NCBI GenBank assembly: GCA_003235555.1
Contig: QJVY01000065.1
Span: forward strand, 1-45,209
Direction of reading: 5' to 3'
DNA from: Ignavibacteria bacterium
Lineage (GTDB): Bacteria > Bacteroidota > Ignavibacteria > UBA10030 > SZUA-254
DNA: 45,209 bases
A model generated the notes under the pieces. That model was not told the origin of the DNA. It did not search any database and saw only the letters and a program-made list of their open reading frames with translations. The translations under genes and the position numbers were made by a program. This document shows positions 10,745 through 28,254 of this stretch, in pieces (within the stretch, counting starts at the first letter, position 1; each line of letters starts with the position of its first letter).

Positions 10745-11617
10745 ATGTGGCGTAAACTGACAAATATTAACCGCGTACTCGTACCGGTAGACCTGACAGA
10801 CGATTCGCTCTGTGCCGTCGAAGCTGCCCTGACCTACTCAAAGGAAAGGAAAGCACAGATCTACCTGATCCATGTCATATCCCCCCATGACGGGGGGACG
10901 GGTTCACCGGAGCCCGGGTCCGCCTCCCCCCACGGTTCCCATCACCACGACGGGGGCGGAAGGCAGTCTTCGATATTGGAGGAATTCTTCCTCAAAAAAA
11001 TCAAACCGCAATCCAACGTGGCCTGCATCCTGAGGGCGGGCACCCCGGCGCGCGAAATCCTCAGGTTCGCCCGGGAGGAGAGTATCGACCTGATCGTCCT
11101 CCCCCTGGCCCCCGCCGCCAGTGCCGGACGGTCCGGCATGAAGGGCATCGCGGACATCGTCATTCGAAACGCGACCGTACCTGTCGTCGTCGTCAAGCCG
11201 GAATCCGCGGCGAGGCAGGTCCCGGGTCTTCATTTTCAGACAAGGAAAAATCCGGCAGGACAGACGGAGGTGAAAAACATCATGAAATACGACGACAAGT
11301 ATCTCCACGAAATCCGGCAGAATGTCTGCTCGAAGTGCATAGACCGGACGGCATCGGGCCTCTGCGTGGCCTCCACGTTCGACGCCTGCGCGATCAACAG
11401 GTACCTTCCGGAGATCATCGACATCGTCCTGGCCGGCCCGGCTGACGATTACGACGACACGGTCGAGCGGCTCCGGGCCCGGGTATGTGCAGCCTGCGAA
11501 CAGCAGTCTCCGGACGGGAGGTGCGACATGAGGGACGACGTGGAGTGTGCCCTCGACAGGTATTTCCCCCTGGTCATCGAAGCGATCCGCGAGGCGGCCA
11601 GGAACAAGAACACCTGA
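10745..11617 (+). CDS. Universal stress protein (UspA) domain fused in frame to a duplicated Cys-rich module of unknown function
   Basis: USP fold motifs are 'NRVLVPVDLTDDS', 'IYLIHVI', 'IDLIVL' and 'VPVVVVK'. The C-terminal about 110 aa contain two copies of C-x2-C-x8-C-x7-C-A-[IL]-[ND]-R-Y-[LF]-P. The start is uncertain: TTG 10628, ATG 10670 and ATG 10745 are all in frame. An internal GGAGGTG sequence with an ATG at 11282 precedes the Cys-rich part. Confidence 0.7.
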   Translation: MWRKLTNINRVLVPVDLTDDSLCAVEAALTYSKERKAQIYLIHVISPHDGGTGSPEPGSASPHGSHHHDGGGRQSSILEEFFLKKIKPQSNVACILRAGTPAREILRFAREESIDLIVLPLAPAASAGRSGMKGIADIVIRNATVPVVVVKPESAARQVPGLHFQTRKNPAGQTEVKNIMKYDDKYLHEIRQNVCSKCIDRTASGLCVASTFDACAINRYLPEIIDIVLAGPADDYDDTVERLRARVCAACEQQSPDGRCDMRDDVECALDRYFPLVIEAIREAARNKNT

Positions 11618-11623
11618 GGTGCC

Positions 11624-13924
11624 ATGAGTTCGACAGTAACTCACTCTGAACATCCGATGCCCGAACGGGAAGGGATCTCGAAATTCTACATCGCCCTCCT
11701 CGTGACGGGACTCATCGTCGGGGCGACGTTCCTGCTGGGGATCGGCCTCCTCTTTTCCGGAGGGGCCGTCGCACAGACCAGGGACGACTGCCTGATGTGC
11801 CACTCGGACGAAGGGCTCAGCGCCGAGCGGGACGGTGAAGAAGTATCCCAGTACGTCGACGCAACGGTCCTCGACAAATCCCCCCACGGCAAACTGGTCT
11901 GCGTCGCCTGCCATACCCGCTTCAACCCGGAGGAGATGCCGCACAGGGCGAACATCCGCCCGGTAAACTGCCTCACCTGCCACAAGGGCGCCGAGCTGAA
12001 ACATGGCTTCCACCCGCAGCTTGCCGCGGCGATCGCCTCCGGTGAGGATCCCGACGTCGGCTGCAAGGACTGCCACGGGAGGCACGACGTGGTCTCACCG
12101 AAGGAACCGGACTCGCCCTTCAACCGGAAAAACATCTCGGCCGGGTGCGGCCAGTGCCACAGCGATGTCGCCGAAGAGTTCGACCTCTCGGCACACGGTC
12201 TGGCCCATTCGGCCGACGTCAAGGGAGCGCCGGACTGCCTCATCTGCCACGACAGGAAAATCACCGTAACCACGAACCCCGGCAACGGCGTGGGCCTCAA
12301 GCTGGCCCAGGAGCGGCTCTGCCTCAGCTGCCACATGGACAACCCCGACGTCCGAGACAGGACATCCCCTTCGGCCGGTTTCATCGCGGCCTACGAGCAG
12401 AGCGTGCACGGTTCGGCGCTCACCAACGGGAACGCGAACGCTCCGAACTGCGTCGACTGCCACGGAAGCCACCAGATGGCCAAGGGTTTCGACCCGTCGT
12501 CGAAGGTCAGCAAGATGAAGATCGCCGAGACGTGTTCGAAATGTCACGGGGATATCGCCGGGGTGTTCAACGGGAGCGTTCACGGGAAGGCGGTCACCGC
12601 CGGGGTCGAGGACGCTCCCACCTGCACCGACTGCCACGGAGAACACACGATCCTGAAACACAACGACCCGCGCTCGCCGGTGGCCAAGCAGAACCTGTCG
12701 GCGCAGGTCTGCTCCCCCTGCCACAGTTCGGTGGCCCTCTCCACCAAGTACGGCATCGCGAACGACCGATTCAAAACATTCACCGACAGTTACCACGGCC
12801 TCGCGATCCGGGGCGGATCGGTGGAGGTGGCCAACTGCGCCAGCTGCCACGGGTCGCACAACATCAAGCCCTCGTCCGATTCCACGTCGACCATCTCGAA
12901 GGCGAACCTGGTGAAGACCTGCGGACGCTGCCACCCCGGGGCCAACCAGCGGTTTACCGTGGGCGCGGTGCATGTCAACGAAAAATCCCGCACCGAGGAA
13001 CCCCTCCTCTACTGGATCGCGACGCTGTACATCCTGCTGATCGTGGTCACGATCGGCGGCATGCTGTTCCATAACGTGATCGACTTCGTGAAAAAGTCCA
13101 GGCGGAAACTCATGATCCGCAGGGGCCTCATCCCGCATCCGCACGCGGGACCCGGGATGTATGTCAGGATGACCGGGGAGGAACGCTTCCAGCACGCCGC
13201 CCTGCTGATCAGCTTCACGACGCTCGTGGTGACCGGGTTCATGCTCCGCTTCCCCGAGGTCTGGTGGGTGCGCTGGATCCGCGACCTGGGCGGCGGGGTG
13301 TTCGAGGCGCGGAGCCTGACGCACCGCATCGCCGGCGTGGTGATGCTCGCAGCGAGCCTCTACCATGTCTACTACGTCTCCTTCACGAAACGGGGACGGG
13401 AACTGATCCTCGACATGCTCCCCCGCATGCAGGACGTCCGGGACGCGCTGGCGATGGTGAAATACAACCTGGGCATGCGAAACGACCGCCCGCTCTTCGA
13501 CCGCTTTTCGTATATCGAGAAGGCCGAGTACTGGGCGCTCATCTGGGGGACGATGGTCATGGGGGCCACCGGGCTGATCATGTGGTTCGACAACACCTTC
13601 ATCGGGCTGTTGACGAAGCTCGGGTACGACGTGGCCAGGAGCATTCACTATTACGAGGCGTGGCTGGCCACACTCGCCATTATCGTCTGGCACTTCTATT
13701 TCGTGATCTTCAACCCCGACGTGTACCCGCTGAATGTGGCGTTCTGGAAGGGTACCCTCACCGAGGAGGAAATGGAGGAGGACCATCCGCTGGAACTCCG
13801 CAAAATACAAAACGCCGGAACGAAGAAAGACATCGATTCGTCGGATAAAGGGCCCGAACGCCTGGACAAAGGCCCGGACCCGGATCGCGACAGAAACGGC
13901 AACGGACACGGGGGGAAAGCGTGA
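11624..13924 (+). CDS. 13-haem c-type cytochrome fused to a di-haem cytochrome b membrane domain (FdnI/HydC-like); CbcL-like architecture
   Basis: An N-terminal signal anchor is followed by 13 CxxCH motifs (CLMCH, CVACH, CLTCH, CKDCH, CGQCH, CLICH, CLSCH, CVDCH, CSKCH, CTDCH, CSPCH, CASCH, CGRCH). About 5 TM helices follow, with conserved His pairs ('HRIAGVVMLAASLYH', 13 residues apart; 'HYYEAWLATLAIIVWH', 14 apart). Confidence 0.9.
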   Translation: MSSTVTHSEHPMPEREGISKFYIALLVTGLIVGATFLLGIGLLFSGGAVAQTRDDCLMCHSDEGLSAERDGEEVSQYVDATVLDKSPHGKLVCVACHTRFNPEEMPHRANIRPVNCLTCHKGAELKHGFHPQLAAAIASGEDPDVGCKDCHGRHDVVSPKEPDSPFNRKNISAGCGQCHSDVAEEFDLSAHGLAHSADVKGAPDCLICHDRKITVTTNPGNGVGLKLAQERLCLSCHMDNPDVRDRTSPSAGFIAAYEQSVHGSALTNGNANAPNCVDCHGSHQMAKGFDPSSKVSKMKIAETCSKCHGDIAGVFNGSVHGKAVTAGVEDAPTCTDCHGEHTILKHNDPRSPVAKQNLSAQVCSPCHSSVALSTKYGIANDRFKTFTDSYHGLAIRGGSVEVANCASCHGSHNIKPSSDSTSTISKANLVKTCGRCHPGANQRFTVGAVHVNEKSRTEEPLLYWIATLYILLIVVTIGGMLFHNVIDFVKKSRRKLMIRRGLIPHPHAGPGMYVRMTGEERFQHAALLISFTTLVVTGFMLRFPEVWWVRWIRDLGGGVFEARSLTHRIAGVVMLAASLYHVYYVSFTKRGRELILDMLPRMQDVRDALAMVKYNLGMRNDRPLFDRFSYIEKAEYWALIWGTMVMGATGLIMWFDNTFIGLLTKLGYDVARSIHYYEAWLATLAIIVWHFYFVIFNPDVYPLNVAFWKGTLTEEEMEEDHPLELRKIQNAGTKKDIDSSDKGPERLDKGPDPDRDRNGNGHGGKA

Positions 13925-16017
13925 CGATCCGCAATCACCTTCACGCCGCCGCCGGCCGGTGTGCGGTCGCGGCGCTTCTCATCCTGACGTTCACGCAGGT
14001 GGGGTTGGTCATCGCGCAGGAGGACGCCGACTGCCTTTCCTGCCATGAGGACCGGTCCATGGAGGGAACCCGCGACGGGCGGACGATTTCGGTCTTCGTC
14101 AACGGGAAGGTGTTCGCCGGATCCATCCATGCCGCAAACGGGTGCATCTCCTGTCACGCGGACCTGGCGGAAGCGGAGTTTCCCCATGCTGAAGAGGTCG
14201 CACCGGTGGAGTGCGGGACCTGCCACTCGGACGAACAGGAAGAGGAATCGAAATCGCTCCACGGCCGCGCGGCCGAGAGGGGCGACCGGCTCGCGCCGGT
14301 CTGCAAGGACTGCCACGGGACGCACGGCATCCTTCCCAAATCGGACCACAATTCCCCCATCTCGGCGCTGAAGGTCCCTTTCCTCTGCGGGAAGTGTCAC
14401 CAGGAAGGTTCCACGGTGATGACCCAGCGGACCATCCATCAGGACAACATCCTCGAGAACTTCTCCGAGAGCATACACGGCGAGGGGCTGTTGCGCAAGG
14501 GTCTCGTGGTCGCCCCCAACTGCGCGTCGTGCCACACCGGCCACTCGATCCTCCCGCACACCGACCCCGCCTCGTCGATCGCGCGGACCAACATCGCCTC
14601 GACCTGCACGCAGTGCCACGGGGAGATCGAGGAGGTCCACCGCAAGGTGATCAAGGGCGAGCTCTGGGAAAAGGAAGCGCACGTCCTCCCGGCGTGCGTG
14701 GACTGCCACCAGCCGCACAAGATCCGCAAAGTTTTCTACTCGCAGGGGATGGCCGACGCCGACTGCATGCGGTGCCACGACAAGCCCGATCTGAAAGCTT
14801 CCTCCGACGGGAGGTCGCTCGCCGTCGCCGCCGCGGCGCTGGCGCGGTCGATGCACGCGAAAATCTCCTGCAGCCAGTGTCACTCGGAGGTTAACGCCTC
14901 CAAGGTGCGCCCCTGCGAAACCATCGTCCGGAAGGTGGACTGCTCTTCGTGCCATGCCGAGATCAACCTGGAATTCTCGGCGAGCCTCCACGGGACGCGT
15001 GCCATGGAGCAGGACCCGAACGCCCCGACCTGCAAGGAGTGCCACGGTGACCACGAGATCCTCGGGAAACGGAACCCGCTCTCGAAAACCTTCCCGACGA
15101 ATGTTCCGGACCTCTGCGCGCGCTGCCACCGTGAGGGGCAGAAGGCCGCCGTGCTCTACACGGGTATCGAGCATGAGATCATCGAACGGTATACCGAATC
15201 GATACACGGCAAGGGGCTGATGAAAAGCGGCCTGACCGTGACGGCCATGTGCACGAGCTGCCACACCTCGCACAACGTCCGTCCGCGCAGCGACAGCCTC
15301 TCCAGCGTCAACAGGGACAACCTGCCGGCGACCTGCGGCACCTGCCACCACGGGATCGAGGACCAGTTCGAGAAGAGCGTCCATTCGAAGCGGGTCTCGA
15401 AAAGCGACAAACCGCTCCCCGTGTGCGACGATTGCCACACGGCGCACAAGATCCGCCGGGCCGACGAGGAGGGGTTCAAGCTGACGATCATGCAGCAATG
15501 CGGCCGCTGCCACGAGGCTATCGCGAAGACCTACTTCGACACCTACCACGGAAAGGTCTCGCAGCTCGGGTATACCAAGACAGCCAAATGCTACGACTGC
15601 CACGGAGCCCACGATATCCTTCCGGTTGCCGACCCGAACTCCCACCTGAGCCGCGAGAACGTCGTGGGGACGTGCCGGAAGTGCCACGAGGGGGCGACCC
15701 GGATGTTCGCCGGCTACCTCACCCACGCCACCCACCACGACCCGGAGAAGTACCCCCTCCTCTTCTGGACGTTCTGGGGAATGACCTCGCTCCTGATCGG
15801 CACGTTCATCTTCGGGGGGATCCACACCCTGCTCTGGCTGCCGCGTGCGTTCCGGTACAGGAAATTGCTGAAGGAGACCCACGATAAAATCCGCAACGGG
15901 CGGTTAAGCGGGGCGCCGGAGGGGGGCGCGGACCCAGGTGAGAGGGACCCCGGGTCCCCCGATGCGGGTCAGCCCGAAGGGAACCGTGAGAAGAACGACG
16001 GTGGCGATAATGGCTGA
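13921..16017 (+). CDS. 19-haem c-type cytochrome with an N-terminal signal peptide and a single C-terminal TM helix
   Basis: The GTG start overlaps the upstream stop (GTGA). I counted 19 CxxCH motifs by eye. The C-terminal helix is 'YPLLFWTFWGMTSLLIGTFIFGGIHTLLWL', followed by a Gly/Asp/Pro-rich tail. Confidence 0.9.
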   Translation: MTIRNHLHAAAGRCAVAALLILTFTQVGLVIAQEDADCLSCHEDRSMEGTRDGRTISVFVNGKVFAGSIHAANGCISCHADLAEAEFPHAEEVAPVECGTCHSDEQEEESKSLHGRAAERGDRLAPVCKDCHGTHGILPKSDHNSPISALKVPFLCGKCHQEGSTVMTQRTIHQDNILENFSESIHGEGLLRKGLVVAPNCASCHTGHSILPHTDPASSIARTNIASTCTQCHGEIEEVHRKVIKGELWEKEAHVLPACVDCHQPHKIRKVFYSQGMADADCMRCHDKPDLKASSDGRSLAVAAAALARSMHAKISCSQCHSEVNASKVRPCETIVRKVDCSSCHAEINLEFSASLHGTRAMEQDPNAPTCKECHGDHEILGKRNPLSKTFPTNVPDLCARCHREGQKAAVLYTGIEHEIIERYTESIHGKGLMKSGLTVTAMCTSCHTSHNVRPRSDSLSSVNRDNLPATCGTCHHGIEDQFEKSVHSKRVSKSDKPLPVCDDCHTAHKIRRADEEGFKLTIMQQCGRCHEAIAKTYFDTYHGKVSQLGYTKTAKCYDCHGAHDILPVADPNSHLSRENVVGTCRKCHEGATRMFAGYLTHATHHDPEKYPLLFWTFWGMTSLLIGTFIFGGIHTLLWLPRAFRYRKLLKETHDKIRNGRLSGAPEGGADPGERDPGSPDAGQPEGNREKNDGGDNG

Positions 16018-16897
16018 GAAATTACCGGTGGAGGCGAATGAATTACGGCAGCTCCTCCAGTCGCCGGTGGGGGAGAAACAGTTTCTCCGCTTCAGCCGGC
16101 TGAACAGGGCCCTGCACATCATCCTGATCGTGAGTTTCCTGAGTCTTGCGCTGACCGGACTCACGCTGAAGTTTTCCTATACGGGGTGGGCCGTGGTGCT
16201 CTCCCATGTTCTGGGGGGGTTCGAACTCACAGGTTACCTGCACCGTTTCGCCGCCGTGCTGATGTTTTTGATTTTCTTCATACACCTCGGCGACGTCGTC
16301 CGCATGAAGCGTTCGGAACACCGCTCCTGGGGTTCGGTCATTTTCGGCCCCGACTCCATGATGTTCAACAAAAAAGACCTGTCGGATTTCATCGGTTCGG
16401 TGAAATGGTTCGTGGGGAAGGGCCCCAGGCCGCAGTTCGGCCGCTGGACGTACTGGGAGAAGTTCGACTACTTTGCGGTCTTCTGGGGGGTGGCGGTCAT
16501 CGGTTCCACGGGGCTGATGCTCTGGTTCTCGGAGTTCTTCACGCGGTTCCTCCCCGGCTGGCTGATCAACGTGGCGACGATCATCCACAGCGACGAAGCG
16601 CTTCTCGCGGTCGGGTTCATCTTCACGGTTCATTTCTTCAACACCCACCTCCGCCCCGAAAAATTCCCGATGGACATCGTGATCTTCACCGGACGGATGG
16701 ACGTCGACGAGTTCATGCTCGACAAGCCCGGCGAATACGAGGAGCTGAAGAAATCCGGAAAGCTCGATGAAAAACTGGTTGAACCCTACCAGCCGATCGT
16801 CATCCGGGCCGTGAAGGCCTTCGGGTGGACGGCGCTCACGATCGGGTTCAGCGTCGTGGTCTGGATCATCTACGCCATGCTTTTCGCATACCGGTGA
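16010..16897 (+). CDS. Di-haem cytochrome b membrane subunit (FdnI/HydC/PhsC-like), partner of the 19-haem cytochrome
   Basis: The ATG at 16010 overlaps the upstream stop by 8 nt (ATGGCTGA). The protein is clearly homologous to the C-terminal domain of the 11624 gene: 'RF.R..R..H', '[16 protein letters not shown]', '[21 protein letters not shown]' and '[20 protein letters not shown]'. Confidence 0.85.
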
Positions 16898-16984
16898 CCT
16901 CCCCGAAGATGGAGCGGCCGGCAAGTTTGAGAATTAGCCCGTAATCATTACATTGATCACTGTTTCTTATCATTGTCCCTTTTC

Positions 16985-18481
16985 ATGAAAAGAATCTTTC
17001 CACCGTCATTCTACAACATCATCACGCTCATCGGGACGGCGGTTGCGGGTGTCACCTTCGGGCTGATCCTCTTCCTGATCCTGATCGAATCGATGGCCGC
17101 CCAGGAGAAGCCCTACATGGGCATCGTGACGTTCGTGATTCTCCCGGTGTTTTTGTTGCTGGGCATCGCTGTCATGATCTTCGGGATCATGCGCGAACAC
17201 CACCGCGAGAAATTGGGGAAACCCCACTCCCTCCGTCTTCCGCAGATCGACCTCAACAACCCCAAGCACCGGACCGCGTTCGTGTCCTTCGCGGTCGGCG
17301 GCGTTTTGTTGCTGCTCTTCTCGGCCTTTGGCAGCTTCAAGGCCTACGAGTACACCGACTCCGACCAGTTCTGCGGGGAGACCTGCCACTCGGTCATGGA
17401 GCCGGAATACACCGCTTACCAGTTCTCCCCCCACGCGAAAGTGGGCTGCGTCCAGTGCCACATCGGATCCGGGGCCGACTGGTTCGTCCGGGCGAAAATA
17501 TCCGGCAGTTACCAGCTCTACGCCGTTGCGTTCAACAAGTATCCCAAACCGATCCCGACCCCGATCGAGAACCTCCGTCCGGCCCAGGAGACCTGTGAAC
17601 AGTGCCACTGGCCGAAGCATTTCTTCAGCGAGAAGCAGAGGGTCAACACCTACTTCCTCGCCGACGACGACAACACGAAGTGGAGCATCAACCTGCTGAT
17701 GAAGATCGGCGGGGGCAACATCGAGGCGGGACCCACCTCCGGCATCCACTGGCACATGAACATCGCCCACGAGGTGACGTACAAGGCGCTGGACAGGGAG
17801 CGCCAGGTGATCCCGTGGGTGCGCTCACGGACCCCCGAGGGCGAGGAAACGATCTACAGGAGCACCGAGGTCGAAGTCACGGAAGACTCGCTCGCGAACG
17901 CGTTCACGCGCCGCATGGACTGCATCGACTGCCACAACCGGCCGACGCACATCTACCACCCACCCGCCCCGTCGATAAACCACCTCATGGCCCTCGGGTG
18001 GATCAGTCCCGCCCTTCCCGGCATCAAGGCCGTCAGCCTGGAGGCGCTCGAGGGCGAGTACTCCACGAAGCCGGGCGCGCTCGACACCATCGGCGCGACC
18101 ATCGAGGGATACTACCGGGACAACCACCCGGAAATCCTTTCGACCATGCGCACAGCCGTCGACAGCGCCATCGCCGAGGTCCGGAAGATCTACAGCCGGA
18201 ATTACTTCCCCGAGATGCGGACAGACTGGAAAAAATTTCCCGACAACCTGGGTCACCTGTACTCGCCGGGATGTTTCCGCTGCCACGACGGGAAGCACGT
18301 GACGGACCAGGGGAAGGTACTGTCGAAGGATTGCAACACCTGCCACACCATCCTGGCGCAGAAGTTCGAAAACGATTCACTCAGGATATCGCTCGGAGGT
18401 ATCCAGTACCGGCACCCCGTGGACATCGGAGGGGCGTGGATGGAAATGAACTGCAGCGAATGTCATTCAGCAACCCAGTAG
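16985..18481 (+). CDS. Inner-membrane 7-haem NapC/NirT-like cytochrome c (ImcH-like architecture)
   Basis: There are three N-terminal TM helices. The first haem site, 'FCGETCHSVMEPEY', is NapC/NirT-like but is C-x3-CH. Six canonical CxxCH motifs follow (CVQCH, CEQCH, CIDCH, CFRCH, CNTCH, CSECH). I prefer the ATG at 16985 (MKRIFPP) over the TTG at 16973. Confidence 0.85.
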   Translation: MKRIFPPSFYNIITLIGTAVAGVTFGLILFLILIESMAAQEKPYMGIVTFVILPVFLLLGIAVMIFGIMREHHREKLGKPHSLRLPQIDLNNPKHRTAFVSFAVGGVLLLLFSAFGSFKAYEYTDSDQFCGETCHSVMEPEYTAYQFSPHAKVGCVQCHIGSGADWFVRAKISGSYQLYAVAFNKYPKPIPTPIENLRPAQETCEQCHWPKHFFSEKQRVNTYFLADDDNTKWSINLLMKIGGGNIEAGPTSGIHWHMNIAHEVTYKALDRERQVIPWVRSRTPEGEETIYRSTEVEVTEDSLANAFTRRMDCIDCHNRPTHIYHPPAPSINHLMALGWISPALPGIKAVSLEALEGEYSTKPGALDTIGATIEGYYRDNHPEILSTMRTAVDSAIAEVRKIYSRNYFPEMRTDWKKFPDNLGHLYSPGCFRCHDGKHVTDQGKVLSKDCNTCHTILAQKFENDSLRISLGGIQYRHPVDIGGAWMEMNCSECHSATQ

Positions 18482-18493
18482 CCCAAAACAGAC

Positions 18494-18949
18494 ATGGAAA
18501 ACAGAACGGAACAACCCGCACAGCCCCGCAAGAGGGAACTGCTCATGTGGATTCTCTCGGGGGGCCTGTTCGGCATGGCCGCATCGATACTCTACCCGCT
18601 CTTCGCGTACCTGAAACCGCCCAGGCTCGGCGAGGTGGAAACGTCATCGGTCAAGGCGGGCAAGGTCGACGATTTCCAGGTCGACAGCGGGCAAATCATC
18701 AAATTCGGGACGAAACCCGTGCTGCTGGTCCGGACTCCCAACGATGAATTCCGGGCGTTCTCGGCCGTCTGCACGCACCTCGACTGTACCGTACAGTACC
18801 GCAGGGAGAAAGGGGTGATCTGGTGTGCGTGCCACAACGGAACGTACGACCTGACCGGGAGGAACATCGGCGGACCTCCTCCGAGGCCGCTCGATGAATT
18901 TCGCGTCGTGATCCAGGGAGAGGAGGTTCTCATTTCGAAAAAAGCATGA
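18494..18949 (+). CDS. Rieske [2Fe-2S] subunit of a cytochrome bc/b6f-type complex
   Basis: An N-terminal TM anchor is followed by Rieske box I 'CTHLDCTV' and box II 'CACHNGTYD'. The stop overlaps the start of the cytochrome b gene (ATGA). Confidence 0.9.
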
Positions 18950-21515: not shown

Positions 21516-21571
21516 CGGGGAGACGGGTCGGATGGTCGATGACCGGGATTCTTAATTTTGAGAAACCCGGA

Positions 21572-21589: not shown

Positions 21590-21765
21590 TGAAAATATCA
21601 TGCATCACCCGGACCCTGCCCGGTTGTAAAATCCCCGCTGATACCACTGGAGGCCCATTCCCGGATTCCCTCAATTCCCTCCCGAACTGGCACCAAATTT
21701 GATAGACCTGTACCGGTCTCTTTCCAGATAGTCCCGCCATCAATCATGATGATGAGGAGAGTCAG

Positions 21766-21996
21766 ATGAAGAAGTTCATTTTCATCGCGCAGGTGGTCAG
21801 CGTCTCCCTGATATGGCTCTTCGTCGTCGTCATAACACTCTGGATACTCAACCTTATCTCCCTTTCCATCGATCTCAACGACATGCCCGGTGCCTCCGTA
21901 GGCATCAGCATCGTCGCTATTCCCATCTTCATCACCCTGGCCTCGATCCTCACCTACGTCTTTATCGGATTGCAAAGGGGTAAAAACAAAGGTTAA
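21766..21996 (+). CDS. Small hypothetical two-TM membrane protein
   Basis: 76-aa ORF preceded by GAGGAGAG. The product is strongly hydrophobic (IAQVVSVSLIWLFVVVITLWILNL; ISIVAIPIFITLASILTYVFI). Its composition is AT-richer than its neighbours. I do not recognise the family, so it could be spurious. Confidence 0.45.
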   Translation: MKKFIFIAQVVSVSLIWLFVVVITLWILNLISLSIDLNDMPGASVGISIVAIPIFITLASILTYVFIGLQRGKNKG

Positions 21997-22018
21997 CCAA
22001 CCTCCGAGGAGGAACACG

Positions 22019-23182
22019 ATGGTACGTACACTATTCTGGATGCTCTGCATCATTGTTCCCGGAACACTCTCTGCCCAGGAAATCCGGCTGCCGCAGAACC
22101 CGCTGGAAGGGAGAATCGTCTTCGAGGAGAAGGGTTGCATCGAATGTCACCAGCTCGGGGGATACGGCGGGACCGCGGGACCATCCCTGAGCAAGGACCT
22201 CTACTTCGGGACCGTCCTGGAGTTGGCGACGATCATCTGGAACCATACGCCCCAGATGAACCGCAAATTCCGCCAGATGCGGGTCTCCCGTCCGGAATTC
22301 ACCGAGAAGGAGATGACCGACCTGTTCGGGTTCCTCTACTACCTCAGGTACCTGGGAGAACCCGGCGGGGTGGCGAGGGGAAAGAAGTTGCTCGAATCCA
22401 AGGGCTGCAGGCAGTGCCATTCCCTGGGAGGATCGGGTGGTGGGGTCGGAGTCCCGCTCGATTCGATCACGGTGACCGCGTCCCCCCTCTACATCGTGCA
22501 GTCGATGTGGAACCACGTCCCGGCGATGAAGGAGCAGATCTCGAAGACAAACCTGGTGTACCCCGAACTCTCCGGTCAGGACATCGCCGACATCACGGCC
22601 TACATCCGCCAGGCGACGATGAACACGACGGTCGTGGGGGGCGCGGCACCCGGCGATCCCCACCTGGGAAGGGAAATCTTCGCCTCGAAAGGCTGCAACG
22701 ACTGCCACATGACCGGGGAAGGAAAGAGGAAAATCATCGCCCCCAACCTCTCGCGGATCGAGTTGCGGGAAAGCGTCACCGAAACCGCGAGCCTGATGTG
22801 GAACCACGGCCCGATGATGCTGCAACACATGGAGGACAGGTCGATCGACTGGCCCCGATTCGAGGGGAACGAGATGGCGGACCTGATCGCCTACCTCTAC
22901 TTCCTGGATTTCGAGGACAAACCCGGGGACCCGAAAAAGGGAGAGGGTGTGTTCGCGGCGCGCGGGTGTGGCAGCTGCCACGGGAAAAACGGATCCGGGA
23001 AGGGACCCGACCTGGCGACGATCACGCACTTCGATTCCCCCATCAGGATGATCCAGCTGATGTGGAACCACGCCCAGAGCATGGAGGACATGCTCATCAC
23101 GCAGAACAAGCACTGGCCGGAACTGACCGGTGACGAGATGCGCAACCTCTACGCCTACATCAGGGAAGCAACGAAGAAATAA
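22019..23182 (+). CDS. Tetra-domain class I c-type cytochrome (four tandem monohaem repeats)
   Basis: A strong RBS (GAGGAGG) lies 6 nt upstream, and a signal peptide is present. Four repeats of about 90 aa each carry 'KGC..CH' (CIECH, CRQCH, CNDCH, CGSCH). Each is followed about 30 aa later by 'WNH.P/Q.M', which probably supplies the Met axial ligand. Confidence 0.9.
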   Translation: MVRTLFWMLCIIVPGTLSAQEIRLPQNPLEGRIVFEEKGCIECHQLGGYGGTAGPSLSKDLYFGTVLELATIIWNHTPQMNRKFRQMRVSRPEFTEKEMTDLFGFLYYLRYLGEPGGVARGKKLLESKGCRQCHSLGGSGGGVGVPLDSITVTASPLYIVQSMWNHVPAMKEQISKTNLVYPELSGQDIADITAYIRQATMNTTVVGGAAPGDPHLGREIFASKGCNDCHMTGEGKRKIIAPNLSRIELRESVTETASLMWNHGPMMLQHMEDRSIDWPRFEGNEMADLIAYLYFLDFEDKPGDPKKGEGVFAARGCGSCHGKNGSGKGPDLATITHFDSPIRMIQLMWNHAQSMEDMLITQNKHWPELTGDEMRNLYAYIREATKK

Positions 23183-23211
23183 CCTTCCGACACAACCATA
23201 CCCGGCCGTCG

Positions 23212-23739
23212 ATGAAAGAGTTGAAAACAGGGTCGATCGCGAGCGTTGTCGTCCGATTTGCGTATGCGGGGTGCCTGATCCTTTCCGGGGCATGCGCGAT
23301 CTCTTCGGGGGACGAGCCGGACCAACCCATTGCCTACAATCACAAACTGCATATCGAGACCGTCGGACTCGAGTGCGCGGAGTGCCACCGCTACGTGGAA
23401 ACGTCCGCCGCCGCCACGTTACCACCCCTCGAAGTGTGCCGCTCCTGCCACGAGTCCGAACCGCTCACCGAGTCTCCGGAGGAAACCGTCCTCCTGAAAT
23501 ATGTTGCCGACGGGACCGAGATCCCGTGGAAGAGGATCTATCACGTCCCGGACCACGTCTATTTTTCACATCGCCGGCATGTCGTCCTGGGGGAACTCGA
23601 CTGCGGTCTGTGCCACGGGGTCATGCAGGAGCAGACGGCGCCGGTCCGGTCGGCGTTTCTCGAGGTGAAGATGGAGAACTGCATGGACTGCCACCGGGAA
23701 CACAAGGTCACCAATGATTGTCTCTCCTGTCATCGTTGA
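23212..23739 (+). CDS. Pentahaem c-type cytochrome (ActA/QrcA-like position)
   Basis: An N-terminal hydrophobic anchor is followed by 5 CxxCH motifs (CAECH, CRSCH, CGLCH, CMDCH, CLSCH). The gene sits directly upstream of the molybdopterin-family / FeS / NrfD trio. Confidence 0.85.
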   Translation: MKELKTGSIASVVVRFAYAGCLILSGACAISSGDEPDQPIAYNHKLHIETVGLECAECHRYVETSAAATLPPLEVCRSCHESEPLTESPEETVLLKYVADGTEIPWKRIYHVPDHVYFSHRRHVVLGELDCGLCHGVMQEQTAPVRSAFLEVKMENCMDCHREHKVTNDCLSCHR

Positions 23740-23753
23740 ACGAGGGGTGAAGA

Positions 23754-26210
23754 ATGGAAATTAGTCGACGTGATTTCGTCAAGCTGATCGGGGGGATATC
23801 GGGTAGCGTCGCGCTCGGGGGATGCGCCCTCGACGAAGTGCTGGAGATTCCGGAGAGGATCGTCCGCCGGATGCGCACCGGGCCGGGGCTGGAAACCTGG
23901 AAGAACACCGTCTGCGGATTGTGCCCCGCCGGGTGCGGGATGAGCGTCCGGCTGATCGACTCCGTACCCGTGGGGATCAAGGGGAACGGTCAGTATCCGG
24001 TCAACCAGGGAGGTCTCTGTCCGCTGGGGCTCAACGCACTCCACCTCCTTTACCATCCCGACCGCCTCAAGGGACCCGTCCGGAGGGTGGGGAATCCCGG
24101 GAGCGGGAAATGGGAACCGGTCTCCTGGGATGAAGCACTGACAACGATCGCCGACCGGCTGACAGAACTCCGGAGGTCCGGGCGGTCCCGCGAGGTCGCG
24201 GTCCTCGGCAACACGGAGCGGGGTGTGATGGAGGAACACCTTCGCCGGTTCCTGACGTCGTACGGCTCGCCCAACTACTTCCGATTTTCACCGGAACAGA
24301 ACGATTCGGTCCCCTTCGCGCTCGTCCACGGCCGTCCCGACATTCCCTCGTTCGACCTGCTCGGCGCCGGCCTGGTGTTGAGTTTCGGCGCGAACTTCCT
24401 GGAGGACGGGTGGTCGCCGGTGTATTACACGAAACTCTACAGCCGGCACCGGGAGCAGCAGACGCGGTACATCCAGGTGGAATCGCGCATGAGCATGACC
24501 GCCTCGAACGCCGAACGCTGGATACCCGTGCGTCCCGGGACGTACGGGGCGCTCGCCCTCGGTATCGCGTACGTCCTCATCCGGGAGGACCTCTTCAACG
24601 AACGGTTCGTGCGCAACGACACGTTCGGATTCGAAGACTGGGTCGATACCGCGGGGACGAAACACATCGGTTTCCGGAACATCGTCCTCGGGAACTACTA
24701 CCCGGAGAAGGTCTCGGAAATCACGGGCGTCCCGGCCGCAACGATCCTGGAACTCGGGAGGCTCGTGGGAAGCACGCCGAAGACCGTTGTCATCGGCGGG
24801 TCGGGTGCGGGCGACAATACCAACGGGACATTCTCACAGATGGCCGTTCAGAGCCTCAACGCCCTCCTCGGGAACTACGACCCCGGGGGAGGGGTCTTTT
24901 TCCACGGCCATGCACCGCTCGACCGGTTCCCCGATCTCACGCTCGACGGTCCGGCGAAGGCGGGCATCCGGGCCGAACCGCTCGGCGGCCCCGGGAAGGA
25001 TGCGTATCCCCTGACCGGTTTTTCCATCGATCGCTTTGCGAAGAACGTTGCCGCGGAAGAACCCTACCCCCTCAGCGTCCTCTTCCTCTACGGCGGCAAT
25101 CCCCTCTTCCAGGCGCTGAACCACCAGGACCTTTCCGCCGCGCTGAAGAAGGTCCCGCTCGTCGTCAGTTTTGATACGATCATCAACGAGACGAGCGAGT
25201 ACGCCAACCTCGTGCTCCCCGAACACACGTTCCTGGAGAACTGGGGCGAGGTTTCGGACGTCCCGACGGTCGGGTTTTCGCACCTCGGCATCCGGCAGCC
25301 CGTGGTCGAGGCCCTGCACGACACGCGCAACGCCGGTGACGTGTTCATCGAACTCGCCCGCCGGATCGGCGGCGCCGTCGGCTCGTCGGCCCCGTTCACC
25401 GATTACCTCGGGGGACTCAAACACGCCGTCCGCGGTCTGTACCGGTCCGGCGAGGGCTCCGTGGTCACGCGCGGTCAAAAGACGCGGTGGCTCGAATACC
25501 TCCAGCAGAGGGGATGGCAGAGCGGTCGGTACTCGAGCTTCGATGAGTTCTGGGACCAGCTTCTGACCCACGGGGGCTGGTGGAATCCCGTGCGGCGGGA
25601 TGGGAAGGCGGGCGGCAAATTCCCGACTCCATCCGGGAAGTATGAATTCTACTCCCGGAAACTGATGGATGAACTCCACGCGCGGGCGGACCGCGGCGGG
25701 ACCACGGACTCCCGGGGGAACCTCGAATCGCTGCTGAGCCGCCTGGACATCGCGGCCCGGGGGGACAACGTGGCCCTTCCGCACCACGAGCCCGTGCCCT
25801 ACGAAGGGGACCGTCCGCTCTACCTGGTCACGTTCCAGGTGCTCCCCAACCGTGACGGTGTCGGGGCCGCTCTCCCGATGATGCAGGAAATGTTCGGGTA
25901 CGCGGTGCACGCCCACTGGGAGTCCTGGGTCGAGATCCACCCGGAGACGGCCGCCGCCGCGGGCATATCCTCCGGGGACTGGACCTGGGTGGAGTCGTCG
26001 GTCGGAAGCGTGCGGGTCAGGGCCAGGGTGACGCCCGGCATCATGCCCGATGTTGTCGCGATTCCCTTCGGGATGGGTCACACCTCCTACGGACGGTACG
26101 CGCGGGGCTACGGGGTCAACCCGAACACCATCCTCAGGAACCTCCACGACCGGTTGAGCGGCAAGCCCGCGACCGGGGCGACAAAAATCAGAATCTCACG
26201 TGCAGTCTAA
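23754..26210 (+). CDS. Molybdopterin-oxidoreductase family large subunit (complex iron-sulfur molybdoenzyme, CISM, alpha-like) with a Tat leader
   Basis: 'MEISRRDFVKLIGG...ALGGCA' is a Tat motif plus a possible lipobox. The FS0 motif 'CGLCPAGCG-x27-C' (C-x2-C-x3-C-x27-C) is present. Typical blocks include 'ISWDEAL', 'YGSPN', 'ANF.E', 'RPGTYGALALG' and the C-terminal beta-barrel 'V.IHPETAAAAGISSGDWTWVES..G'. Confidence 0.9.
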   Translation: MEISRRDFVKLIGGISGSVALGGCALDEVLEIPERIVRRMRTGPGLETWKNTVCGLCPAGCGMSVRLIDSVPVGIKGNGQYPVNQGGLCPLGLNALHLLYHPDRLKGPVRRVGNPGSGKWEPVSWDEALTTIADRLTELRRSGRSREVAVLGNTERGVMEEHLRRFLTSYGSPNYFRFSPEQNDSVPFALVHGRPDIPSFDLLGAGLVLSFGANFLEDGWSPVYYTKLYSRHREQQTRYIQVESRMSMTASNAERWIPVRPGTYGALALGIAYVLIREDLFNERFVRNDTFGFEDWVDTAGTKHIGFRNIVLGNYYPEKVSEITGVPAATILELGRLVGSTPKTVVIGGSGAGDNTNGTFSQMAVQSLNALLGNYDPGGGVFFHGHAPLDRFPDLTLDGPAKAGIRAEPLGGPGKDAYPLTGFSIDRFAKNVAAEEPYPLSVLFLYGGNPLFQALNHQDLSAALKKVPLVVSFDTIINETSEYANLVLPEHTFLENWGEVSDVPTVGFSHLGIRQPVVEALHDTRNAGDVFIELARRIGGAVGSSAPFTDYLGGLKHAVRGLYRSGEGSVVTRGQKTRWLEYLQQRGWQSGRYSSFDEFWDQLLTHGGWWNPVRRDGKAGGKFPTPSGKYEFYSRKLMDELHARADRGGTTDSRGNLESLLSRLDIAARGDNVALPHHEPVPYEGDRPLYLVTFQVLPNRDGVGAALPMMQEMFGYAVHAHWESWVEIHPETAAAAGISSGDWTWVESSVGSVRVRARVTPGIMPDVVAIPFGMGHTSYGRYARGYGVNPNTILRNLHDRLSGKPATGATKIRISRAV

Positions 26211-26227
26211 ATCAGAGGGACCCGCCC

Positions 26228-26911
26228 ATGGCTAAATGGACGATGGCGATCGACCTGGACCGGTGCACCGGCTGCGGCGCGTGCATGGTGGCGTGCAAGA
26301 CGGAGAACAACGTCCCCATCGTGACCCCGGAGGAGGCCCACGAGGGCAGGGTGATGAACTGGATGGAGATGATCACCGAGTACGAGGGTGATTATCCCAA
26401 CCTCTCGGTGAGGCGGATGCCGAAACCCTGCTTCCATTGCGACAATCCCCCCTGCACGCGTGTCTGCCCGGTGGGGGCAACGTACCGGAACGAGGAAGGG
26501 CTCGTCGCCCAGATCTACCACCGGTGCATCGGATGCCGGTACTGCATGGTCGCATGCCCCTTCACGGCGAAGGTGTTCAACTGGCATGAACCGATCTGGA
26601 TGGAAGGGGCGGACACCTGTTATAATCCGGACGTGTCGCGGCGGATGGTCGGTGTAGTGGAGAAGTGCTCCTTCTGTGCTCACAGGCTGACGAAAGTGAA
26701 GGAAGAGGCTGACGGGGAGGACCGGTCGAATAACGACGGGGAGTACCTCCCCGCCTGCGCCGAGATCTGCCCCGCGGACGCGATCACGTTCGGGGACCTC
26801 GAGGACAGGACGAGCGCCGTCTACGGGAAGTCGCGGGATTACCGGGCCCACAGGATCATGGAGGACCTGGGTGTGGAACCCAAAGTGTACTACCTTTCGA
26901 AGAGGACGTGA
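26228..26911 (+). CDS. Four-cluster [4Fe-4S] ferredoxin subunit (PsrB/NrfC/QrcC/ActB2-like)
   Basis: Four Cys groups are present: 'CTGCGACMVAC', 'CFHCDNPPCTRVCP', 'CIGCRYCMVACP' and 'CSFC...ACAEICP'. It has no signal peptide of its own, which is consistent with Tat hitch-hiking on the large subunit. Confidence 0.95.
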   Translation: MAKWTMAIDLDRCTGCGACMVACKTENNVPIVTPEEAHEGRVMNWMEMITEYEGDYPNLSVRRMPKPCFHCDNPPCTRVCPVGATYRNEEGLVAQIYHRCIGCRYCMVACPFTAKVFNWHEPIWMEGADTCYNPDVSRRMVGVVEKCSFCAHRLTKVKEEADGEDRSNNDGEYLPACAEICPADAITFGDLEDRTSAVYGKSRDYRAHRIMEDLGVEPKVYYLSKRT

Positions 26912-28254
26912 TGACAGAGAAACATCTTCCCTACGAACACGAACTCGACGCCACGCTCTACAAGCCCATCTATCACACCGGGAAGGGGTACTACCTGACG
27001 GTCGCCGTCCTCCTCGCCGTCATCGTCTGGGCGCTCTACATGTTTTACATGCAGCTCCGGACGGGCCTCGGCCTCACCGGGATGGCTCAGCCGATTTCCT
27101 GGGGCTTCTACATCGTCAATTTCGTGTTCTTCATCGGCATCAGCCATGCGGGGACGCTGATCTCGGCGATCCTCCGCCTCTCCAAGGCGGAGTGGAGGCG
27201 CCCCATCACCCGCATGGCGGAGGTCATCACCGCCATCGTCCTGGCGATCGGGGGGCTGCACCCGATCATCGACCTCGGACGGCCGGACAGGATGCTCAAC
27301 CTTCTCACCTCGGGGCGGCTCCAGTCCCCGCTCCTCTGGGACGTGACCAGTATTACGGCCTACTTCACGGCGAGTACCGTGTACCTGTATGTGCCGATGA
27401 TCCCAGATATCGCCCGCCTGCGCGACCAGGGGGGGAAGATGAAATGGCTCTACACCTTCATGGCCTGGGGATTCACCGGCACCGAGCGCCAGAAACACAT
27501 TCTCAACCGCGCCATCAATATTTTGATGGTGATGGTCATCCCCATCGCGGTTTCGGTGCATACCGTCATTTCCTATATCTTTTCGATGACCCTTCAGCCG
27601 GGCTGGCACAGCACGATCTTCGGCCCGTATTTCGTGGTCGGCGCCATCTTTTCCGGCATCGCGGCCCTGTTGATCGTCATGATCGCCTTCCGGAAGGCCT
27701 TCCACCTGGAGGCGTACCTGAAGGAGATCCACTTCAAGTACCTCAGCACGCTCATGCTGATCATGTCCATCATCTGGTTCTATTTCACCTTCTCGGAGTA
27801 CCTGACGGGTGTCTTCGGCGACGAACCGCATGAAATGGACATCATCATGTACAAGTTCACCGGGCCCTTCGCAGTCTTTTTCTGGGGAATGGTCGTGTGT
27901 AATTTCGTCATCCCGATGGTCCTCCTCGCCTTCAAGAAATTCAAAACGATGACCGGTATCCTCGTAGCTTCCATCGCCGTGGTGACCGGCATGTGGCTGG
28001 AGAGGCTCATCATCGTCGTGCCGTCGCTCGCGAACCCGAGGATGGACCTGCCGATGGGGATCTACATCCCCACCGCGACGGAATGGGCCCTGTTCGCCGG
28101 AGGGATCGCCGTCTTCATCCTCGGTTTCATGCTGTTCGCGAAGATGTTTCCGTTGATTTCGATCTGGGAGATCGAGGAGGGAAGGAAAGAGGGTTTGAAG
28201 GAGGTCGAGGAGAGGATCCACAGCTACCTCCCGTCCACCCCCGGCACGACCTGA
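26908..28254 (+). CDS. NrfD/PsrC-family polytopic quinone-interacting membrane subunit (ActC/QrcD-like size)
   Basis: The 448-aa product is very hydrophobic, with 'WGFYIVNFVFFIGISHAGTLISAILRL' and 'W......ITAYF', which are typical of NrfD family proteins. The start is either GTG 26908 or ATG 26911; both overlap the FeS gene stop. Confidence 0.9.
   Translation: MMTEKHLPYEHELDATLYKPIYHTGKGYYLTVAVLLAVIVWALYMFYMQLRTGLGLTGMAQPISWGFYIVNFVFFIGISHAGTLISAILRLSKAEWRRPITRMAEVITAIVLAIGGLHPIIDLGRPDRMLNLLTSGRLQSPLLWDVTSITAYFTASTVYLYVPMIPDIARLRDQGGKMKWLYTFMAWGFTGTERQKHILNRAINILMVMVIPIAVSVHTVISYIFSMTLQPGWHSTIFGPYFVVGAIFSGIAALLIVMIAFRKAFHLEAYLKEIHFKYLSTLMLIMSIIWFYFTFSEYLTGVFGDEPHEMDIIMYKFTGPFAVFFWGMVVCNFVIPMVLLAFKKFKTMTGILVASIAVVTGMWLERLIIVVPSLANPRMDLPMGIYIPTATEWALFAGGIAVFILGFMLFAKMFPLISIWEIEEGRKEGLKEVEERIHSYLPSTPGTT

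Follow-up and report, generated by a model that had tools for sequence, protein, structure and literature searches.

The window analysed here is a 45,209-nucleotide (nt) stretch of contig QJVY01000065.1 from an Ignavibacteria bacterium, and the subject of this study is a block of cytochrome and quinone-oxidoreductase genes at positions 10745-28254 within it. Six-frame open reading frames (ORFs) and their translations placed 14 genes in this block, all on the + strand, with overlapping junctions at 13921 (GTGA), 16010-16017 (ATGGCTGA), 18946 and 20022 (both ATGA), and 26908 (GTGATG). Gaps longer than 30 nt occur at only two places in the cluster, 16898-16984 (87 nt) and 21516-21765 (250 nt). 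The original prediction had described 14 co-directional genes with these same overlaps and gaps, and a re-check of the ORFs and junctions found all of them exact. The locus is made up of two units, A (10745-21515) and B (21766-28254), within which, the 87-nt gap excepted, genes overlap or lie less than 30 nt apart. Unit A carries, in order, usp, a CbcL-like fusion (g1), a CbcBA-like pair (g2 and g3), imcH (g4), and genes for a Rieske protein (g5), a cytochrome b (g6), and an 11-haem cytochrome (g7). Unit B carries a small membrane protein, a four-domain class-I cytochrome c (g8), an ActA-like pentahaem cytochrome (g9), a molybdopterin-like protein (g10), an iron-sulfur (FeS) protein (g11), and an ActC-like NrfD protein (g12). 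These are probably two transcription units, so that of the "one or two operons" first suggested two is the probable number, and a sigma-54-like element lies in the 250-nt gap between them. The same gene order was found on an independent JGI contig, Ga0259481_10002207.

A recount of the translations gave 59 c-haem motifs in the block, as had been claimed, consisting of 58 CxxCH and one CX3CH. They are distributed over g1 (13), g2 (19), g4 (six CxxCH and the single CX3CH), g7 (11), g8 (four), and g9 (five). Elsewhere in the window, CxxCH was present in only two of the ORFs examined, at 30892-31968 (two motifs) and 38706-39716 (three), and this scarcity indicates that the concentration of haem motifs in the block is far beyond chance. 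Five quinone-interacting modules could be distinguished: the CbcL-like fusion, the CbcBA-like pair, ImcH, the Rieske/cytochrome b pair with its 11-haem cytochrome, and a complex of the class that includes alternative complex III (ACIII) and Qrc. The profile searches that had been suggested for each ORF were run, and Ni_hydr_CYTB, NapC/NirT, Rieske, Cytochrome_B, NrfD, Molybdopterin, and Fer4_11 were all matched. The proposed assignments (CbcL-like fusion, CbcBA-like split pair, ImcH-like, bc-type, and Qrc/ACIII-type) held in these domain searches as well as in comparisons to structure databases.

The CbcL-like gene g1 (11624..13924, +) encodes a single polypeptide in which a signal anchor and 13 CxxCH motifs are combined with a transmembrane helix and a di-haem b domain of the four-helix FdnI/HydC type; the gene's start in the JGI annotation lies 33 nt downstream. 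It matched Pfam Ni_hydr_CYTB at 53.8 bits, against a cut-off of 30.1, and the formate dehydrogenase gamma model at 44.9 bits. The next gene, g2 (13921..16017, +), has a CbcA-like architecture with a signal peptide, 19 CxxCH motifs, and a single C-terminal transmembrane helix at residues 613-631; it matched Pfam Cytochrome_C7, c3_2, and Paired_CXXCH, and it overlaps both g1 (through GTGA) and g3. Its partner g3 (16010..16897, +) is a CbcB-like, FdnI-type di-haem cytochrome b that matched TIGR01583 at 50 bits and Ni_hydr_CYTB at 23.4 bits, the latter under the Pfam cut-off, and when aligned to E. coli FdnI (1kqf_C) it kept all four haem histidines. Comparison of the three genes with each other showed that g1 is a fused paralogue of g2 and g3: its c part, anchor helix included, is 29% identical to g2, and its b part is 31% identical to g3 (E 3e-33), with the haem histidines of the two aligned.

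In this way, g1 and the g2/g3 pair reproduce, in their sequences, the fused CbcL and the split CbcBA architectures, respectively. Like g1, CbcL/Cbc1 (GSU0274) of the MtrH/MtoC family joins a periplasmic multihaem c region to a C-terminal HydC/FdnI-type di-haem b domain in one polypeptide; CbcL has nine haem motifs compared to 13 in g1, within a published family range of 3-23 (PMC6295460), and unlike CbcL, g1 adjoins its own split paralogue. CbcBA/Cbc5 (GSU0593-0594) resembles g2 and g3 in combining a multihaem c protein that has a single C-terminal helix with a separate FdnI-type cytochrome b. The pair differs from CbcBA in having 19 rather than seven haems, and the order here is c and then b. 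CbcBA also belongs to a sigma-54/BccR-dependent operon, whereas the window holds no BccR-type sigma-54 activator and has a Crp/Fnr regulator upstream instead.

The fourth cytochrome-type gene, g4 (16985..18481, +), encodes a 498-residue protein with a NapC/NirT N-terminal region and is assigned here to the ImcH family as a heptahaem menaquinol oxidase of the inner membrane. Three N-terminal transmembrane helices are marked by hydropathy peaks (residues 16-34, 47-65, and 98-116), and the CX3CH motif (CGETCH, residues 130-135) follows helix 3 by 14 residues; there are six CxxCH motifs in addition. The protein matched Cytochrom_NNT at 39.7 bits, against a Pfam cut-off of 24.1, and its only relative in the PDB was NrfH (2j7a_C). 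The published description of the ImcH family (three N-terminal helices, CX3CH, six CxxCH, and about 500 residues; PMC6295460) applies to g4 in full, and on these sequence features it is a bona fide family member. Among 66 homologues of g4, K171 and Q177 are invariant and D/E125 and Y/F186 are conserved. The g4 residues D125, K171, Q177, and Y186 stand at an offset of -2 from E127, K173, Q179, and Y188 of the G. sulfurreducens protein (10.1101/2023.05.03.539133). With ImcH GSU3259, g4 thus has in common the three helices, the CX3CH after helix 3, the six CxxCH, the length, and a NapC/NirT/NrfH-like quinol site in which Lys, Gln (the distal ligand of haem 1), and Tyr occupy matching offsets. In contrast, imcH stands alone in the Geobacter genome, while g4 sits among four other quinone modules. 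G. sulfurreducens ImcH was not among the g4 homologues listed, which are mostly close Ignavibacteriota proteins named "NapC/NirT" or "hypothetical". In metagenomes the family comprises at least 7,998 clusters at 90% identity, a very large family that is still labelled only "NapC/NirT family" and that represents an annotation gap.

Downstream of imcH are the Rieske [2Fe-2S] subunit g5 (18494..18949, +; Pfam Rieske 49.3 bits), which has CTHLDC and CACHNG boxes and one N-terminal helix, and the cytochrome b gene g6 (18946..20025, +), which is of the type with b6 and subunit IV fused and matched Cytochrome_B (169 bits) and Cytochrom_B_C. In the PDB, g6 scored 201 bits with cytochrome b6 and 186 bits with the Aquifex cytochrome b; its translation has H-x13-H and H-x14-H pairs and a PEWY motif of the quinol-oxidation (Qo) site. 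The place of cytochrome c1 or f is taken by g7 (20022..21515, +), a cytochrome with a signal peptide, 11 CxxCH motifs, and a C-terminal anchor helix at residues 463-481, in contrast to the mono-haem third subunit of bc1 and b6f complexes. Geobacter Cbc6 (CbcMNOPQR, equal to ExtMNOPQS) likewise teams a Rieske protein and a b6-type cytochrome b with multihaem cytochromes and not with c1 or f. On the NCBIfam ExtP model, g6 reached 210 bits (cut-off 290), and g8 and g7 gave partial matches to ExtS, ExtM, and ExtN, all Ext scores being under their cut-offs. The differences from Cbc6/Ext are that cytochrome b is here fused to subunit IV and that it has a single, anchored 11-haem partner. The physiological role of Cbc6 is not known (PMC13591261).

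Unit B opens with a 76-residue ORF (21766..21996, +) that has two transmembrane helices, belongs to no Pfam family, and is also called in the JGI annotation. It was conserved directly upstream of the four-domain cytochrome c in eight out of eight relatives examined, whose GC contents are very different, and it may be an unrecognised subunit of the unit B complex. The adjacent gene, g8 (22019..23182, +), encodes a periplasmic cytochrome with four class-I mono-haem domains and four CxxCH motifs; it matched Cytochrom_C at 94.7 bits in three stretches and Cytochrome_CBB3 at 73.5 bits, with partial matches to CcoP and ExtS, and its homologue always adjoins the ACIII/Qrc-like genes in relatives. The ActA/QrcA-like pentahaem cytochrome g9 (23212..23739, +) has an N-terminal anchor and five CxxCH motifs; it scored 75-87 bits with the ACIII ActA chains 8k9e_A, 6f0k_A, 6lod_A, and 6btm_A, and 100 bits on NCBIfam QrcA (cut-off 180). 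The four-cluster FeS subunit g11 (26228..26911, +), which is QrcC/ActB2-like, matched Fer4_11 and reached 283 bits on NCBIfam QrcC (cut-off 400), 201 bits with the C-terminal domain of Rhodothermus ActB (6f0k_B), 122 bits with PsrB, and 120 bits with ArrB. The membrane subunit g12 (26908..28254, +) is an ActC-type, quinone-binding member of the NrfD family (Pfam NrfD 128 bits) with about ten hydrophobic segments; it scored 229-239 bits with ACIII ActC chains and 41 bits with ActF, and on NCBIfam models 35 bits for QrcD (cut-off 570) and 113 bits for DsrP.

The remaining subunit, g10 (23754..26210, +), is a QrcB/ActB1-like protein of the molybdopterin family, predicted to be exported by the twin-arginine (Tat) route, with matches to Molybdopterin, Molybdop_Fe4S4, and Molydop_binding. 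Its NCBIfam scores were 292 bits for QrcB (cut-off 440), 281 for PhsA, and 270 for ArrA, all under the cut-offs, and its scores with PDB chains were 262 bits for ArrA, 167 for PsrA, and 76 for ActB. In the alignment, the segment of ArrA and PsrA that holds the Mo-ligand Cys falls in a deletion in g10. Across eight members of the g10 family, the ligand site offers no Cys and no conserved Ser or Asp, while the FS0 motif CxxCxxxC...C is invariant. Because the Mo-ligand cysteine is missing, g10 is probably non-catalytic and would have lost the cofactor while retaining the FS0 4Fe-4S motif. The Arr substrate residues, (R/K)GRY and HS..C..K, are absent from the alignment of g10 with ArrA, and a role for g10 as an arsenate or polysulfide reductase was rejected on its active-site residues.

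By sequence comparison, unit B is predicted to encode an ACIII/Qrc-class complex that has the four-subunit layout of Qrc together with ACIII-like haem, FeS, and membrane subunits, these three being closer to ACIII than to Qrc. ACIII (ActABCDEF; 6btm, 6f0k, 6lod, 8k9e) shares with unit B the ActA-like pentahaem cytochrome (87 bits), the ActB2-like FeS protein (201 bits), the ActC-like NrfD protein (239 bits), and a Tat-exported molybdopterin-like module that has no catalytic ligand. ActB, which is fused in ACIII, is split into two genes in unit B, the first of which is nearer to ArrA and PsrA than to ActB1. Homologues of ActD, ActE, and ActF were not detected in unit B, which has only one NrfD gene, and their place is taken by the small two-helix protein and the four-domain class-I cytochrome c. 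Canonical ACIII also lies beside an oxidase, whereas unit B does not. With Qrc (QrcABCD) of sulfate reducers, unit B shares the four-gene layout of cytochrome, molybdopterin-like, FeS, and NrfD proteins, and Qrc models were the best NCBIfam matches for three of its subunits (QrcA 100, QrcB 292, and QrcC 283 bits). All unit B scores are under the Qrc cut-offs, however, and its cytochrome has five haems compared to six in Qrc; its host does not reduce sulfate, and its genes lie within an ImcH/Rieske island. Unit B would thus represent a new variant within the ACIII/Qrc class, with split ActB and without ActDEF, rather than a terminal reductase.

Conservation of the block was followed by a scan with g4 over one genome per GTDB species, which returned 80 loci, nearly all in metagenome-assembled genomes of Ignavibacteriota and with a best identity of 82%. 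Synteny was read from a tblastn table, a clustered gene map, and counts, with minimum flanks of 5.5 kb upstream and 4.5 kb downstream; for the high-GC window and its relatives L001 and L002, gene content was taken from the tblastn table. A CbcL-like or 19-haem cytochrome/cytochrome b (c19/b) module lay upstream in 42 of the 57 loci with at least 5.5 kb of upstream flank, g1 homologues being present in 38 of these 57, and g3 co-occurs with g2 in relatives. The Rieske/cytochrome b/11-haem (c11) trio lay downstream in 35 of the 61 loci with at least 4.5 kb of downstream flank, the c11 gene always after cytochrome b. Among the 50 loci with both flanks, homologues of the CbcL-like, c19, cytochrome b, and c11 genes stood beside ImcH in 14, and a b/c module together with Rieske/cytochrome b in 27. 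ImcH appeared alone in eight of these loci at stringent identity cut-offs, although five of the eight still had a distant CbcL-like gene (34-40% identity). Variant loci drop the c19/b pair or the Rieske/cytochrome b/c11 trio, and loci of KSB1 and related lineages (L073, L074, L078) have the same genes in a different order. This recurrence, with modules present or absent by locus, shows that the linkage of g1-g7 is conserved and modular and not accidental. The neighbourhood comparison that had been called for therefore found a block that recurs as a modular island across the Ignavibacteriota lineage and of which fragments are seen in KSB1 and other phyla too. That the modules had been brought together was rightly predicted; that this organism had gathered them itself was not, as the island is lineage-wide in Ignavibacteriota.

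Unit B followed c11 in four genomes of this set (L008, L016, L038, L050). An independent metagenome scan with g10 returned close relatives at 53% identity or more. In L084, L085, and L090, the Rieske, cytochrome b, and c11 genes all lie upstream of the unit B module; in L087, a cytochrome b gene lies upstream and the class-I cytochrome is followed by a c11-like gene with nine haems; and L088 has no Rieske or cytochrome b gene in 9.4 kb upstream and only a 9-haem c11-like gene downstream. All close relatives of the g10 module with enough flank thus adjoin Rieske/cytochrome b, a c11-type gene, or both. Unit B is specifically linked to the Rieske/cytochrome b-c11 module, so that of the "five independent membrane modules" of the original prediction all five are present and the last is not independent. 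The two closest relatives, L001 and L002, have no unit B after c11. In its place, menaquinone (mqn) genes lie within about 3 kb of c11 in L001 (17451-19313) and L002 (14607-16991, directly after c11). Homologues of ImcH with 52-62% identity were also seen on contigs L025, L032, L042, L053, L060, and L066, which bear the labels Nitrospiraceae, Dissulfurispiraceae, Gemmatimonadetes, Chthonomonadales, Krumholzibacteriia, and Fibrobacteraceae; CbcL-like genes are present on L042 and L053 as well. These labels may reflect either binning errors or a horizontal transfer in which pieces of the island moved.

In four of the relatives (L084, L085, L090, L091), the NrfD gene is followed by conduit genes, with the L085 contig ending after the first of them. 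The set consists of a c554-like tetrahaem cytochrome, a porin-like protein of 435-450 residues, a 12-14-haem cytochrome, and 5-8-haem cytochromes, and in L090 and L091 it includes an NrfE/CcmF-family lyase. The same conduit occurs directly after c11 or ImcH in about 20 other loci, and its cytochromes also comprise one with a CX4CH motif and a lipoprotein that carries an MtrC-type domain. The 435-residue porin-like protein has a signal peptide, a C-terminal Phe, and an OMP_b-brl match (E 8e-5) that is under the cut-off, and its neighbours are 14-haem and lipoprotein cytochromes. This set is similar to the Geobacter-like porin-cytochrome clusters reported for Ignavibacteria (PMC7399161). The lyase is a paralogue of the NrfE/CcmF haem lyase family (TIGR00353, 257 bits) at the edge of the island (e.g. 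L005, 14529-16772) and is carried by L004-L007, L011, L036, L058, L061, L070, L072, L090, and L091, with no copy in the window; it is a candidate for haem attachment at the CX3CH of ImcH or the CX4CH of conduit cytochromes. Between imcH and the Rieske gene, L008, L050 (9267-11981), L085, and L090 have a sixth gate in which an octahaem cytochrome is combined with an NrfC-like FeS protein and an NrfD protein (148 bits); the edge of L084 shows at least the NrfD gene. This sixth gate resembles Geobacter Cbc4/CbcSTU.

Given this gene content and its conservation, we favour with moderate confidence a reading of the block as a respiratory island of five alternative complexes that would pass electrons of the menaquinone pool on to periplasmic cytochromes, most likely for extracellular electron transfer to Fe(III) or Mn(IV) minerals, humics, or electrodes. 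The extracellular role is preferred because the island in relatives runs into a tetrahaem cytochrome, a porin-like protein, further cytochromes, and an NrfE-type lyase. The original proposal of a modular, periplasm-directed electron hub is strengthened by the same extension into a putative conduit and NrfE/CcmF-type lyase. Each module of unit A would oxidise menaquinol at the periplasmic face and deliver electrons into a haem wire projecting into the periplasm. Menaquinol is the presumed donor because futalosine-pathway genes are found in the window and near c11 in the nearest relatives; the window copy is a futalosine-pathway menaquinone gene (VitK2_biosynth) at 41761-42678 (+). ImcH would act electroneutrally, a property demonstrated for its Geobacter counterpart (10.1101/2023.05.03.539133), the b modules of FdnI type would move electrons across the membrane dielectric, and the Rieske/cytochrome b module could run a Q-cycle. 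From what is established for Qrc and ACIII, the ActC-type NrfD module may be electrogenic, and unit B would link menaquinol to the class-I cytochrome and the neighbouring 11-haem cytochrome. By analogy with G. sulfurreducens, where ImcH operates above about -0.1 V, CbcL from -0.1 to -0.21 V, and CbcBA at lower potentials (PMC13591261), the different gates may serve acceptors of different redox potential.

Several observations weigh against this reading. A search of the proteins of the window found no porin-like, conduit cytochrome, or haem lyase gene and no obvious terminal reductase, and annotation of the flanks bears out the absence of porin-cytochrome, haem maturation, and terminal reductase genes noted originally. 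An assembly chimera at 28.3 kb, considered as an explanation for the missing conduit, was rejected on the continuous GC content and the identical order on the independent JGI contig. The closest relatives, L001 and L002, also have no conduit or lyase next to c11, and with the conduit missing from the window and from both of these, extracellular transfer is extrapolated from more distant relatives; if the extracellular reading is right, the outer-membrane part must be encoded elsewhere in this genome. Even in those relatives, the porin assignment, drawn from a sub-threshold Pfam match and sequence features, is suggestive only. Two of the family assignments are indirect, g1 having been placed in the CbcL family by its published defining features and not by alignment to the G. 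sulfurreducens protein, and the residues of g4 and GSU3259 having been matched by offset relative to H137 and not by direct alignment. Finally, the four-domain class-I cytochrome g8 is of a kind that normally feeds oxidases, so unit B could serve microaerobic respiration.

The last point leads to an alternative in which the locus provides general periplasmic and microaerobic branching, with the gates feeding soluble reductases and unit B working as an ACIII that passes electrons via the class-I cytochrome to a cbb3 or caa3 oxidase. We consider this unlikely. In its favour, g8 is built of class-I, CcoP-like domains, the nearest matches of g9, g11, and g12 are subunits of ACIII, the flanks have a Crp/Fnr regulator upstream and a catalase-peroxidase, no conduit is present in the window, and in the cultured relative Melioribacter roseus ACIII has been established as the quinol:cytochrome c oxidoreductase (PMC3534657, PMC5492636). 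Canonical ACIII, however, is found beside oxidase genes (PMC3534657), in a layout that L099 resembles, and extracellular acceptors are the only ones to which the ImcH and CbcL families have been linked to date (PMC4251993, PMC6295460). Moreover, no oxidase or periplasmic reductase gene adjoins unit B, here or in the relatives examined, and in four relatives unit B lies between the 11-haem cytochrome and the conduit. Electrons might instead be imported, in a quinone-reducing direction such as Fe(II) or cathode oxidation, with the Qrc-like complex as an electrogenic cytochrome c:menaquinone reductase and the Rieske/cytochrome b module running in reverse, a scheme that we judge improbable. Qrc is a menaquinone reductase fed by periplasmic cytochromes, the layout of unit B equals that of QrcABCD, and chains for Fe(II) oxidation typically have class-I cytochromes of high potential. 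Homologues of CbcL/MtoC are also known from Fe(II) oxidisers (PMC6295460). Import is at odds, however, with the ImcH homologues, whose known hosts are so far all reducers and which work as quinol oxidases (PMC6295460; 10.1101/2023.05.03.539133), with a membrane subunit that is ActC-like and not QrcD-like (239 vs 35 bits), and with the absence of Cyc2- or MtoAB-type genes from the window and its relatives.

It is very improbable that g9-g12 form a terminal reductase of the Psr/Phs/Arr type with g10 as the catalytic molybdoenzyme. The full-length alignment of g10 with ArrA (262 bits), and also with PhsA and PsrA, would fit such an enzyme, as would its Tat signal and FS0 cluster, and Psr/Phs-type enzymes have been proposed as arsenate reductases in M. 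roseus (PMC5492636). The deletion of the Cys-ligand segment with no conserved Cys, Ser, or Asp in its stead, the missing Arr residues, and the scores far under the cut-offs of all NCBIfam reductase models speak against catalysis, and an ActA-type pentahaem cytochrome with a ten-helix ActC-type subunit is a hallmark of the non-catalytic ACIII/Qrc class. A chance juxtaposition of unrelated respiratory operons, for which one could point to the 250-nt gap with its possible separate promoter and to L001 and L002, where unit B does not follow c11, is scarcely credible. Dozens of species-level genomes, as well as independent metagenome contigs, show the linkage, with either ImcH or g10 as the starting point, and the genes inside each unit are closely packed; the recurrent synteny effectively refutes chance.

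Beyond the extracellular reading itself, we put forward more tentatively, as a possible but doubtful extension, that Ignavibacteriota have a self-contained, modular island for extracellular electron transfer in which up to six gates (CbcL-, CbcBA-, ImcH-, Cbc4-, Rieske/cytochrome b-, and ACIII/Qrc-like) stand before one conduit and a dedicated lyase, and in which the Rieske/cytochrome b-multihaem module and the minimal ACIII/Qrc-like complex are obligate partners. These two partners might form a supercomplex or a redox loop with opposite directions on the menaquinone pool. If this is true, complexes of the Cbc6 and ACIII types would gain, through such an island, their first functional context in mineral respiration.

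All parts of the block belong to described families, namely ImcH (PMC4251993), CbcL/MtrH/MtoC (PMC6295460), CbcBA, the Rieske/cytochrome b systems Cbc6/Ext, ACIII, and Qrc. What is new is the conserved supercluster and, embedded in it, the split-ActB, ActDEF-less ACIII/Qrc variant. The combined gene order had not been recognised as a described system, and our literature search likewise turned up the parts and not the whole: no description of the combined island or of the embedded ACIII/Qrc-like complex was found in the literature searched, which under-covers subscription journals. The corresponding Geobacter gates are encoded at separate loci, as the original prediction had it (10.1101/2021.04.15.440034, PMC13591261). 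A precedent for clusters with several gates is the mtr cluster of Rhodoferax ferrireducens, with two cymA genes and mtrH (PMC6295460), which likewise encodes several quinol oxidases with an outer-membrane conduit, found here in relatives; it differs in its families (CymA, MtrCAB), in having fewer module types, and in having no Rieske/cytochrome b or NrfD complex. The cultured relative M. roseus has ImcH and an NrfCD pair, was reported to be without cytochrome bc1 genes, and carries a canonical ACIII beside an oxidase (PMC3534657).

In Geobacter, where the genes are scattered, the choice among ImcH, CbcL, and CbcBA sets how much energy the cell conserves at each acceptor potential, and no role is known for Cbc3, Cbc4, or Cbc6. 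An island in another phylum that unites homologues or architectural analogues of these gates offers a ready-made comparative system, a handle on Rieske/cytochrome b and NrfD complexes in mineral respiration, and the testable claim that complexes of these two types take part in it. The island is also a natural gene-cluster template for heterologous reconstruction, and it could mark extracellular respiration in uncultured bacteria of the FCB group from peat, soil, and sediment.

Upstream of the island lies a Crp/Fnr-family regulator gene (9842..10552, +; cNMP_binding, HTH_Crp_2, and Crp matches) that overlaps the upstream ydjM by 4 nt and whose product carries an N-terminal C10-x2-C13 pair. It is followed by usp (10745..11617, +), which opens unit A and is separated from g1 by 6 nt; in its product, Pfam Usp covers residues 9-151 (62.7 bits). 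The 139-residue, Cys-rich C-terminal extension of this protein (residues 152-290) has no Pfam match and consists of two repeats of C-x2-C...C...C...RY[LF]P; it may be a redox- or metal-sensing domain. The long Usp form was found only in L001 and L002, which are also the only other loci with the crp-usp pair directly upstream of the CbcL-like gene (78-81% identity). Genes for a PAS histidine kinase and for a sigma-54 response regulator take this place in most other relatives, which recalls the sigma-54/BccR control of Geobacter cbcBA (10.1101/2021.04.15.440034).

The candidate promoter of unit B is a sigma-54-like -24/-12 element, TGGCAC-N5-TTGA (21688..21703, +), in the 250-nt gap. It is the only match in the window with one mismatch to the sigma-54 consensus, the total number of matches being at chance level. 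In L084 (3733) and L016 (14671), the same motif occupies the corresponding place, some 60-80 nt before the small ORF, and it is absent from L050 and L090, where the gap is short; the pattern suggests that unit B has its own promoter. Scans for sigma-70 promoters and terminators in the gaps and at the cluster ends gave nothing above shuffled expectation, and the 250-nt gap has a single copy of the Bacteroidetes-type -7 motif TAnnTTTG, whose window-wide count is at chance. No FNR box with two or fewer mismatches was found in the regions upstream of usp or imcH; by eye, a weak FNR-like half-palindrome, aTGAc-N4-aTCAt, is seen at 10670-10684, about 60 nt upstream of usp.

Downstream of the NrfD gene g12 are a nitrilase-family gene and genes for proteins with type IX secretion tails. 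On the opposite strand are a catalase-peroxidase gene (KatG, 36225-38408, -) with two peroxidase domains (253 bits) and, adjoining it, an ORF of 336 residues (38706-39716, -) with three CxxCH motifs and sub-threshold matches to cytochrome c' and an MtrC domain. Type IX secretion C-terminal sorting domains are encoded at 29391-30869 (+) and 34832-36112 (-), which fits a host of the FCB group (Ignavibacteriota).

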